In this document: positions 12,837-30,310 of the stretch, in pieces
Layout: each line of letters opens with the position of its first letter
Position numbering within the stretch: the first letter of the stretch is position 1
Origin: an uncultured Methanosarcinales archaeon
GTDB taxonomy: Archaea > Nanobdellota > Nanobdellia > Woesearchaeales > GW2011-AR4
Direction: 5' to 3'
Length of the DNA stretch: 30,689 nucleotides
Assembly: GCA_964622655.1 (NCBI GenBank)
Contig: CAZUSQ010000001.1
Coordinates: 5,427-36,115, forward strand
Position numbers and translations under genes: made by a program
The notes under the pieces: generated by a model
The model's database searches: none
What the model was told of the DNA's origin: nothing
Seen by the model: only the letters and a program-made list of their open reading frames with translations

Positions 12837-14570
12837 TCATTCTATATTATAAACAAATATAGAATAACCAATTTTCTCTATAGGCTCGTATTTTTTAAGC
12901 CAATTATAACATGTTCTATTGAGCAGATGCGCGTTTTGAAGGTTGGTTATGCTGATTGCTATCAAGCCCTTTCTCTTAGAACAGTCTTCAGATACATTAG
13001 GTGGTGAAATAACAACAGATGTATAGTTATTTTGCCATGGCTGGAAGTAAGGGGAAGGCAAGTATTCATAAGAAATGCCGTAGTATCTAGGGTCTATAGA
13101 GCCCCAGTAGCTTAATTTGATTTTATCAATTTTATTTTTTTCCATGAATTTTTTTAGCCCAAATAAGTCCTGGCCTTGGTCTATATTTGAGCCGACTACT
13201 ATCTTGTATGCATTATTTGGCCCTCCGCCCAAGATGTTTATATAAGAAAGATAATATGGGGCAATTAAAATTGTGGAAACTGCATAGGAAATAAGTAAGA
13301 TGGGTATTGCTGCATTGAATATATTTTTTCCTTTTATATTGGCTGGAGCATTAACTATGTTGCTTGCTAAGACTGAAAGAAAGGGGTATATTGTCAATAT
13401 ATGGTTTATACCAGATGTTTTGCTTGTAATAGAGAATATTATAAATATAAAAATTATTGGAAGTATAAGAGACGCATTTGTTATAAAATCCTTTTTTGGC
13501 AATTTTTTATGCAAAAATAAAAGTAAGATAAGCATCAATAAAAATGAAAAATTCGTTTTTATGATGAAGGTAAGGATGCCATAATACCACACTTGATTGT
13601 CGACAATTTCTCCAAGCATAAAACCAGTTTTGTCTTGTGTTGATGCGTAAAAGATGTGCCCAATCATACCTACATAAGTGGACGCTGGCAATGGAACCTT
13701 ATCATATATAAAGAGCAAATAATCCGAAATGATTGGTATTTTGCTTAGTTCCTCTCTTGCTTTTTCCGAATAATACACTGGAACTAGACTGCCTTTAATT
13801 GTTCCAAACTGGAACATATGGAATGCCCATATTAAAACAAAACCGATAATGAATATAACTAAAAGATTTTTGACTAGAGTTTTTGATTTTAGATTACTCT
13901 CCTTTTCGTACACAGCTATAGCTCCAATAACTATAAACAAAGGATATAACATTATTGCAGTTATTTTTGAAAGCTGGGCAAGGCCAAAAAAAATGCCAGC
14001 CAATAAAAGATTCTTCTTAGACGGTTTCTTGATGAGGCGCCAGAAATAATAGGTGGCTATAAAAATCATCATAGCGACAGTAAAGTCTGCAACTGCTAAA
14101 CTAGAATAACCTATAATCGCTGGATTAAACGAATAAAGAAGTAAGGCAACAATGCCACTTTTTTTGCCATAAAGTTCAGTTGCCCACTTAAGTATAAAAA
14201 AGGCAAGTATAACCGAGAGCAAAACAAATGGTATTCTTGATATGAATAAAATAAATTTAGGATCATAGCTGGATTCAAATAAAACTTCTTTTCCGATTTC
14301 CCAAGCCTTGTCATTCTGCCATATTTTCTCATCGAATTTTAAGGGTATCAATGGTATGCTATTTATGTAGTAAGACAGGGGTGGATGGTCTGATGCCACC
14401 ATACGCCTTATATTGCCTGTGCTGAAAATTGCTTTTCCTTCCCCAATAAAAAATAATTCGTCCCATACGGTAGAATTGTGTAGTGCACTCCACACGCCCT
14501 GCACAATAATAGAAAAAAGAAGCAAAGTAATAATAATTAGTTGTGATTTTGAATATTTTACAGATGTCAT
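12837..14570 (-). CDS. GT-C glycosyltransferase, ArnT/PMT-like (GT83/GT39-like)
   Basis: VWDE acidic motif after TM1, DHPPL, multiple TMs, LAQLSK, C-terminal soluble domain. Confidence 0.85.
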   Translation of the reverse strand: MTSVKYSKSQLIIITLLLFSIIVQGVWSALHNSTVWDELFFIGEGKAIFSTGNIRRMVASDHPPLSYYINSIPLIPLKFDEKIWQNDKAWEIGKEVLFESSYDPKFILFISRIPFVLLSVILAFFILKWATELYGKKSGIVALLLYSFNPAIIGYSSLAVADFTVAMMIFIATYYFWRLIKKPSKKNLLLAGIFFGLAQLSKITAIMLYPLFIVIGAIAVYEKESNLKSKTLVKNLLVIFIIGFVLIWAFHMFQFGTIKGSLVPVYYSEKAREELSKIPIISDYLLFIYDKVPLPASTYVGMIGHIFYASTQDKTGFMLGEIVDNQVWYYGILTFIIKTNFSFLLMLILLLFLHKKLPKKDFITNASLILPIIFIFIIFSITSKTSGINHILTIYPFLSVLASNIVNAPANIKGKNIFNAAIPILLISYAVSTILIAPYYLSYINILGGGPNNAYKIVVGSNIDQGQDLFGLKKFMEKNKIDKIKLSYWGSIDPRYYGISYEYLPSPYFQPWQNNYTSVVISPPNVSEDCSKRKGLIAISITNLQNAHLLNRTCYNWLKKYEPIEKIGYSIFVYNIE

Positions 14571-29310: not shown

Positions 29311-29342
29311 CTTACCATTATCCTACTTTATACTACCAATAT
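29311..29342 (+). repeat. Three phased direct repeats, candidate RHH operator
   Basis: cttaccattat / cctactttat / actaccaatat, consensus TACYWWTAT-like, period 10-11 bp. Confidence 0.45.
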
Positions 29343-30135
29343 GAAAGAAAAGATTTCGATAACTATAAACAAAAAAACTTTGCAAGACATAGATTCAATT
29401 ATAGATAATATCTATATAAGGAATAGAAGTCAAGCAATAGAGCATCTTGTCAAAAATGCTTTAGGAGAGAATAAAACTGCTGTAATTCTGCTTGGTGGGA
29501 ATGAAGAGCATTTGAAAATTTCGAAATGGGTTTACAGGCCAACTGCAAAAATAAAGAATAATGCTGTCATTGAATTAGCCTTAAAAAAACTGAGGGAGAA
29601 TAATTTTAAAACAATATTTATTGTTGCAAGGCACAACCTATTGACAAAATTGTTTGAAATGCTGAAAGATGGCGCAAATTATGGAGTGAAGATAAATTAT
29701 ATCGAGGAAAAATCGTCAAATGGCACCGCAGATTCTTTAAGGCTATTGAAAGGAAGGGTTAATGCCAATTTTTTAGTTGTTTATGGTGATATAATTTTCA
29801 GCAAAATAAATATCGAAGAACTTTGGAACGACCATATAAAGCAAAATGCTGTTGCAACAATAATGCTTACAACATCTCCAAAACCTAGCGAAAAAGGAAC
29901 TGTAAAAGTTGAAGGTAATAAAGTGCTGACTTTTACTCAAAAACCAAAAAAGTTTGATATTTATCTTGTCTTTTCTCCTATTTTTGTTACAGAGCCGCAA
30001 ATTTTTGAGTATTCTGGCGCTAGCTTGGAATTTAAGGTATTTCCAGAATTAGCAGAGAAAGGTTTGCTTAATGGACATTTAAGCAGTGAGAAAGAAATTC
30101 ATATCCATACTAAAAAAGATTTAGAGAAAATTTAA
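29341..30135 (+). CDS. Ribbon-helix-helix (CopG/NikR-like) domain fused to a degenerate nucleotidyltransferase domain; putative transcription regulator
   Basis: KISITINKKTLQDID...RNRSQAIEHLV (RHH), followed by TAVILLGG...GTADSL...FLVVYGD...TQKP...SLEFKVFP. Confidence 0.8.
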   Translation: MKEKISITINKKTLQDIDSIIDNIYIRNRSQAIEHLVKNALGENKTAVILLGGNEEHLKISKWVYRPTAKIKNNAVIELALKKLRENNFKTIFIVARHNLLTKLFEMLKDGANYGVKINYIEEKSSNGTADSLRLLKGRVNANFLVVYGDIIFSKINIEELWNDHIKQNAVATIMLTTSPKPSEKGTVKVEGNKVLTFTQKPKKFDIYLVFSPIFVTEPQIFEYSGASLEFKVFPELAEKGLLNGHLSSEKEIHIHTKKDLEKI

Positions 30136-30281
30136 GGTGGACAGCTTTTCCAGGCTCCCGCACTTAAGTGCAGTACGACTGGAAACGGAGGCTTGCTTGA
30201 CTTCCGTGTACCCGCTAAAATGCATATGCACTTTACTTTCGGGATGGGAACGGGTAGAACCAAGCCCCTATGGCCGTCCTT
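30134..30281 (-). rRNA. rrf: 5S rRNA, archaeal type, with a 29-nt insertion in loop C
   Basis: Helix I GGACGGC/GCUGUCC, helix II GGGGCUUG/CAAGCCUC, CCCGUUCCCAUCCCGAA...CACGGAAGUCAAG, helix V UUUCCAG/CUGGAAA, helix IV GCAC-UUAA-GUGC. 148 nt, or 119 nt without the insertion; ends uncertain by a few nt. Confidence 0.95.
30209..30237 (-). other. Putative bulge-helix-bulge intron in 5S rRNA
   Basis: Sense: CCCG-AA|A-GUAAAGUGC-AUAU-GCAUUUUAG-CGGG-UA|C-ACGG. Central 4-bp helix CCCG/CGGG, two 3-nt bulges, internal 8-bp hairpin. Confidence 0.75.
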
Positions 30282-30302
30282 AGAGATGGTATGCTTAAGC
30301 AA

Positions 30303-30310
30303 TTTAAAAA
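30303..30310 (-). promoter_or_regulatory. TATA box TTTTTAAA of the 5S rRNA gene
   Basis: Lies 22-29 bp upstream of the predicted 5S 5' end. Confidence 0.6.

Follow-up and report, generated by a model that had tools for sequence, protein, structure and literature searches.

The window, as we call the whole 30.7-kb stretch of DNA analyzed here, belongs to a small Woesearchaeota archaeon from groundwater and contains a 5S rRNA gene interrupted by 29 nt, and from the comparison of DNA sequences we consider it very likely that this insert represents an intron of the bulge-helix-bulge (BHB) type that is spliced out of the transcript. The proposal was originally made in a sequence-only reading of the window. 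It has since gained support from the geometry of the insert, from predicted cut sites that coincide with alignment-derived boundaries in 42 insertions, from conservation and covariation of the motif at four sites in 35 genes, from the finding of only one 5S gene in the genome, and from the presence of the endonuclease EndA. That the RNA is cleaved, that the exons are ligated and that the insert is missing from ribosomal 5S rRNA are steps that we infer.

The interrupted 5S rRNA gene and its predicted fold

The one RNA gene that Rfam detects in the window encodes 5S rRNA and lies on the minus strand. Its match to RF00001 (54 bits, E 8e-09) spans the full model from 1 to 120 with an insertion of ~30 nt in loop C. 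The gene and its surroundings are divided as follows.

30136..30281, minus strand: 5S rRNA gene including the insert, 146 nt (Rfam RF00001)
30238..30281, minus strand: 5' exon, RNA nt 1-44 (cmscan alignment and deletion scan against uninterrupted 5S genes)
30209..30237, minus strand: proposed intron, 29 nt, RNA nt 45-73 (best-scoring single deletion, at 43 or 44, length 29)
30136..30208, minus strand: 3' exon, RNA nt 74-146, beginning with CACGG of the helix III 3' strand (alignments)
30301..30310, minus strand: TATA-like box TTTTTAAATT, ~25 nt upstream of the 5S start (read from the sequence)

The 5' exon supplies the 5' strands of helices I, II and III and then loop C through ..CCCGAA, so that the insert interrupts the conserved loop C motif CCGAA|C. 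Along the minus-strand RNA the order is ..CCCAUCCCGAA, the 29 nt, and then CACGGAAGUC... Excision one nucleotide further upstream is equivalent, as the boundary slides by one A and the product is unchanged. The sequence-only reading had located a 29-nt interruption between CCCGAA and CACGG at 30209-30237, and this holds on the minus strand. It had also expected a 5S rRNA of ~119 nt after excision, a figure that needs correction as the insert-free product measures 117 nt. This product and the uninterrupted 5S of the relative G009 agree at 106 of 117 positions, with no gap at the junction. The TATA-like box is a plausible promoter and the T-runs found downstream of the 5S 3' end a plausible terminator; the position of the former suggests that the 5S gene forms its own transcription unit.

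An artefact of assembly, or a dead 5S copy whose working counterpart was left unassembled, would also present itself as an interrupted gene. The genome of the window is a metagenome-assembled genome (MAG) of 1.2 Mb in 218 contigs (75% complete), Logan contigs are fragmented around the gene, and exon depth in these contigs is far above that of the flanks because the exons are common to many community members. However, Logan contigs from three groundwater DNA runs bridge exon and insert (the runs listed for the locus are all groundwater DNA metagenomes, with no RNA run among them), so the insert is not an assembly artefact, a concern that the earlier reading had raised itself. Near-identical inserts are present in independent assemblies and in JGI contigs. 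The exons are fully conserved and near-complete relatives hold the interrupted copy alone. An intact second 5S had been named as an observation that would speak against an intron; the 75%-complete genome gave a single 5S match. Artefact and dead copy alike strike us as scarcely credible. A 36-nt word across the spliced junction has no match in the JGI contigs, a result that weighs neither for nor against splicing. A group I or group II intron was also considered and rejected, as a ribozyme core needs far more than 29 nt and Rfam reports the 5S alone in the window.

The minimum free energy (MFE) fold of the 146-nt RNA (-58.1 kcal/mol, z = -4.4 versus shuffles) retains the 5S rRNA helices I, II, IV and V and contains the elements listed here.

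30240..30243, minus strand: H 5' strand, the CCCG that the exon contributes from loop C and that the MFE fold pairs with CGGG
30237..30239, minus strand: 5' bulge AAA, unpaired in the MFE fold, with the predicted cut between 30238 and 30237, following the second A
30215..30236, minus strand: intron hairpin h', a G.G mismatch followed by 8 bp UAAAGUGC/GCAUUUUA and the loop AUAU (MFE fold)
30211..30214, minus strand: H 3' strand, intron CGGG (MFE fold and alignment-boundary geometry)
30208..30210, minus strand: 3' bulge UAC, unpaired in the MFE fold, with the predicted cut after UA (between 30209 and 30208)

Each structural element that had been proposed earlier is reproduced in this fold, namely the 4 bp between CCCG and CGGG, the bulges AAA and UAC, and the 8-bp insert hairpin with its AUAU loop and the G.G mismatch beside one bulge, here the 5' one. 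The strands follow one another as in archaeal pre-tRNA (H exon strand, 5'-site bulge, intron hairpin, H intron strand, 3'-site bulge). On the 5' side the unpaired run reads AAAG opposite a single G, which amounts to the AAA bulge plus the G.G mismatch; on the 3' side UAC faces six unpaired loop C nucleotides and is not a clean bulge. The outer exon-exon helix h is weak (U-A, A.C mismatch, C-G, C-G). Given this weak outer helix and the six unpaired nucleotides opposite UAC, the modeled motif is best called relaxed (HBh'-like) and not canonical hBHBh'. The 3' end of the insert, GCGGGUA (30208-30214), can alternatively pair over 7 positions with UACCCGU of the helix III 5' strand (30249-30256, both on the minus strand) because CCCG is present in helix III as well as in loop C; the MFE fold favors the loop C pairing.

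We propose that in the primary transcript CCCG of loop C forms a helix with CGGG, located close to the insert's 3' end, that a 3-nt bulge follows each H strand (AAA on one, UAC on the other), and that the interior of the insert folds as a hairpin. The genome's own alpha-type EndA would then cut after the second nucleotide of each bulge, and an RtcB-type ligase would join ..CCCGAA to CACGG.. and circularize the 29-mer. The product would be a 117-nt 5S rRNA with loop C and helix III free to fold normally.

Insertions at four sites in related 5S genes

Our Rfam searches took in 43 species of the genus, along with 150 genomes from the order and 150 from the phylum. Most 5S genes in these searches measure 112-118 nt and a minority 134-215 nt; within the genus, seven species have an uninterrupted 5S (115-117 nt) and about 21 carry inserts. 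One 5S gene was found per genome examined, including the near-complete G036, G001 and G020, in which the sole copy is interrupted. The inserts fall at four sites within 13 nt of the 5S, given here in E. coli numbering with their 4-bp helices (exon/intron).

Site C, 40/41: follows ..CCCAU; helix UCCC/GGGG or GGGA, and UCUC/GAGA
Site A (this window), 46/47: follows ..CCGAA; helix CCCG/CGGG, and CUCG/CGAG
Site B', 51/52: follows ..CAG; helix ACCC/GGGU, and ACAC/GUGU
Site B, 52/53: follows ..CGGA; helix CUCG/CGAG, and CACG/CGUG

Both C and B are occupied in seven genes. In the genus, order and phylum searches site A was found only within this genus, whereas C and B inserts extend to further families of the order and to further orders of the class.

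Insertion boundaries were defined as the deletion that best aligned each gene to uninterrupted 5S genes, with no use of structure; in G237 the automatic deletion failed and two inserts were placed by eye. Exon positions -6..-3 were then compared with insert positions -6..-3, the register needed for a BHB cut after the second bulge nucleotide. Across 42 insertions in 35 5S genes of the class, all four pairs are present in 40 and three of four in the other two, and the 3-nt bulge spacing is constant in 42/42. Among insertions of relatives, 33 of 34 pair 4/4 in the BHB register compared with ~3% (about 0.03 per insertion) for shuffled introns. Other registers pair 4/4 in 0-3% of these 34, except for 18% at shift +1, which is due to GGGG runs. 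Cuts after the second bulge nucleotide always give a consensus 5S of 112-119 nt in the 42 insertions, and in the window the EndA cut sites that had been predicted to remove the 29 nt match the boundaries drawn from alignment alone. Insert length ranges from 21 to 74 nt and the hairpin varies in sequence and length, with the 4-bp helix and the 3-nt bulges fixed. A looser BHB scan, accepting any 4/4 helix with 3 bp of h', returned ~20 matches per 5S and was replaced by the alignment-boundary test.

Compensatory changes in the 4-bp helix occur at all four sites. At site A, the exon CUCG is accompanied by the intron CGAG in relative G064 and in one JGI contig; the 5' bulge is AA|A in 8/8 site-A genes, and the 3' bulge in relatives reads UA|C, UU|C, UC|C or UG|C. 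When JGI metagenome contigs were searched with N at both covarying site-A positions, all seven matches were complementary (six C/G and one U/A). These contigs probably belong to species already represented among the genomes above and are thus counted as independent assemblies, not as independent lineages. An Rfam survey of related genomes had been suggested in the sequence-only reading as a check, and it has turned up both further loop C inserts and covariation of CCCG with CGGG. At site B the exon letter covaries additionally with the helix III 5' strand. The site-B 4-bp helix itself uses the helix III 3' strand, so that the insert competes with an essential helix of mature 5S rRNA and its pairing makes sense only as a transient structure. 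The outer helix h at sites B and C consists of a mismatch and 2 bp. Because helix III competes, the 4-bp helix is missing from many MFE folds (it is present in only 16 of 34, all eight site-A cases having 3 or 4 pairs), and its presence in MFE folds was given no weight for or against the intron reading.

These data also bear on whether the insert could be a retained expansion segment, that is, an extra hairpin extending from loop C on the central protuberance, comparable to those of Halococcus morrhuae or Thermoanaerobacter. Positions 52-53 and loop C positions 34-37 are the least obstructed (PMC7812874, PMC7530397), site B is the helix III bulge (position 52-53) where Thermoanaerobacter has a retained expansion segment (PMC7812874), and the EndA of the window's genome carries none of the known broad-specificity loops. 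However, known retained segments have no complementarity to the core and all but one spare conserved motifs (PMC7812874), whereas the insert studied here splits CCGAAC and pairs over 4 nt with the core, in one constant register and with bulges of 3 nt, an arrangement seen at four sites with compensatory changes. A solvent-exposed hairpin gives no reason for a rule of 4 bp and 3 nt, and at site B the pairing would unwind helix III. A retained segment is recognized by self-folding, no core pairing and intact motifs, a description that does not fit the insert. Retention therefore appears improbable to us, and we favor a spliced intron.

The longest 5S gene, 215 nt in G008 (contig C13:14437-14651), holds a 74-nt insert at site C and a 26-nt insert at site B. 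It was missed by the Rfam genus search and recovered only by BLAST with an uninterrupted 5S, and several doubly interrupted 5S genes score under the Rfam gathering threshold. In G026 (contig C36:28527 onward) a 5S with inserts at sites C and B ends after ~position 78 and continues directly into an ORF starting MKISVIGVGYVG.., which we read as a putative dehydrogenase-like N-terminus; the junction would be either a rearrangement or a chimeric assembly.

Splicing enzymes, tRNA introns and LAGLIDADG genes

The genome of the window encodes an EndA with PF01974 and PF02778 on contig C84, where the ORF is truncated by the contig end; full-length EndA in relatives measures ~200 aa. Close relatives of the gene lie on Candidatus Woesearchaeota or Nanoarchaeota contigs, mostly from groundwater. 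The protein is collinear with M. jannaschii EndA (1A79), with no inserted loop and with the catalytic Tyr, His and Lys aligned, and among solved structures the N. equitans alpha subunit is closest to it. Five good genomes from the order yielded no second EndA subunit, even at E values as permissive as 10. Since each of these genomes holds only one EndA gene, the enzyme would be, as far as sequence can tell, an alpha4-type homotetramer. According to the published rule, alpha4 enzymes cut only strict motifs, and relaxed ones are cleaved only by (alpha-beta)2 and epsilon2 enzymes that carry inserted loops (PMC5829648). DPANN alpha4 enzymes go together with disrupted tRNA genes (PMC5829648). If the inserts are spliced, a minimal alpha-type EndA must process relaxed motifs, contrary to current specificity rules. 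In an EndA protein tree, built to see whether intron states follow clades, only 4 of 27 branches are supported and intron states do not cluster; its 163 aa are too short for a species tree. The EndA, RHH/NTP-transferase and 5S genes are neighbors within 1.6 kb in G036 (contig C1:149900-152600). EndA lies ~2 kb from the 5S in G024 and on a different short contig, at its end, in the genome of the window (G000).

ARAGORN reports 10 tRNA genes in the genome of the window, 8 of them with introns, and three anticodon-loop mini-introns of these tRNAs share the H/bulge geometry. In the Rfam alignment the D loop of tRNA-Glu is enlarged by ~36 nt and the anticodon loop by ~20. Across contigs C26, C34, C45, C92 and C115 of the 1.2-Mb MAG (G000), 8-10 tRNA genes are detectable, mostly interrupted and 84-156 nt in length, with tRNA-Val(CAC) at 156 nt; probably many of its tRNA genes are interrupted too heavily for standard finders to recognize. 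An attempt to resolve multi-intron tRNAs by enumerating BHB excisions and passing the products to ARAGORN accepted too many products and was dropped, and the tRNA intron evidence is limited to the Rfam alignments and the three clean anticodon-loop introns. The 16S and 23S genes were not found in the MAG.

The ligase bears on a further possibility, that EndA cuts and the exons stay unjoined, giving a two-piece 5S (44 + 73 nt) held by helices I-III, as in rRNAs fragmented at bacterial intervening sequences. RtcB was found neither in the window's own genome nor in G020 (99% complete), and the three helices would still hold the pieces. Set against this, RtcB is present in four of five genus relatives with an interrupted 5S, the intron-rich tRNA genes require a ligase anyway, and the genome of the window is only 75% complete. 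A two-piece 5S thus seems to us very improbable, more so than a retained segment. The points that count against a spliced intron are the weak outer helix, the G.G mismatch, the single loopless EndA, the failure to see RtcB in the own genome and the overlap of site B with the Thermoanaerobacter segment.

Five genomes with site-B inserts (G024, G004, G013, G016 and G021) have a 225-aa LAGLIDADG homing-endonuclease ORF in antisense directly after the full 5S (Pfam PF14528, E 3e-15; 69-77% identity between genomes). About 190 nt beyond this ORF lies a relic of the 5S 3' half only (positions ~49/58-115), which abuts a homologue of the window ORF 29341-30135, as the window's single 5S does. In G024 (contig C21:31400-33600) the features of this region are at 166-308, 313-990, 1181-1247 and 1249-2049. 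The arrangement looks like the result of an insertion near site B, by an element that brought along a 5S 3' half of its own and an endonuclease gene. A 5S 3' half only is also seen in G030 (contig C41, ~14074-14141) and in G065, where BLAST with E up to 10 detected no 5' half. Ahead of the G030 3' half stand a TATA-like UUUAUAAAA and the sequence ..AAUCGAG, which is similar to the site-B helix on its intron strand; this partial 5S may represent a relic, a gene left unassembled or a 5S gene that is split.

These observations can be joined in a single speculative scheme, to which we give a small but not negligible chance. Throughout the class Nanoarchaeia the 5S would be a hot spot of tRNA-type introns (four sites in 13 nt) that are removed by a loopless minimal alpha4 endonuclease. 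The introns would persist by breaking the target of a LAGLIDADG endonuclease, the gene of which would have inserted in the 5S of part of the genus with duplication of the 3' half. If this scheme were true, it would describe an arms race within the smallest rRNA.

Comparison with known introns and 5S insertions

BHB introns are known from archaeal tRNA, from 16S and 23S rRNA and from a few mRNAs. Full-text literature searches found no described 5S rRNA intron, in agreement with the statement of the earlier reading that it knew of no described case. Queries that linked 5S rRNA to introns, BHB motifs, DPANN or Nanoarchaeota returned only 16S/23S processing at flanking BHB motifs, permuted 23S, and reviews without 5S introns. 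The kind of intron proposed here is itself known, and its host RNA would be the first of its type, as a BHB intron in 5S rRNA is without described precedent.

If the inserts are spliced, 5S maturation in these archaea relies on the tRNA-splicing machinery; in M. maripaludis the 5S is processed at A/U-rich motifs and not at a BHB. Interrupted 5S genes receive too low a score from standard rRNA finders or escape them. A recent preprint (10.64898/2026.05.13.725050, 2026) lists a few complete Nanobdellota genomes without detectable 5S, and interrupted genes may account for such cases.

Pre-tRNA BHB introns, including the non-canonical HBh' form (Marck and Grosjean nomenclature; PMC5829648), have the same 4-bp helix between exon and intron 3' end, the same two 3-nt bulges, the same cut after the second bulge nucleotide, and an h' hairpin, in ~20-75 nt with no ORF. 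Their pairing of the anticodon region with the intron is matched by the layout of the 5S insert. They differ in that the host is a tRNA and the outer helix is the anticodon stem, whereas in the 5S there are <=2-3 weak pairs of loop C/helix III. The 16S/23S BHB introns of Thermoproteales and Desulfurococcales and the EndA-cut processing stems of pre-16S/23S (PMC7714728, PMC10515664) provide examples of rRNA as an EndA substrate, as proposed here, and these introns likewise lie in conserved, functionally important rRNA segments. In contrast to the present case, their hosts are large rRNAs and many of them carry LAGLIDADG homing-endonuclease ORFs.

Retained 5S expansion segments, such as the 108-nt segment of Halococcus morrhuae and that in helix III of Thermoanaerobacter, share a position with the inserts, as site B is position 52-53 in the numbering of Stepanov and Fox (2021, PMC7812874). 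The sole catalogue of prokaryotic 5S insertions regards these insertions as retained expansion segments. Among archaea, Stepanov and Fox report 5S insertions from Halobacteriales alone, and they state that they could not rule out excision in unverified cases (PMC7812874). Retained segments have been shown in mature 5S rRNA and fold alone with no complementarity to the core, whereas the inserts described here pair with the core in BHB geometry.
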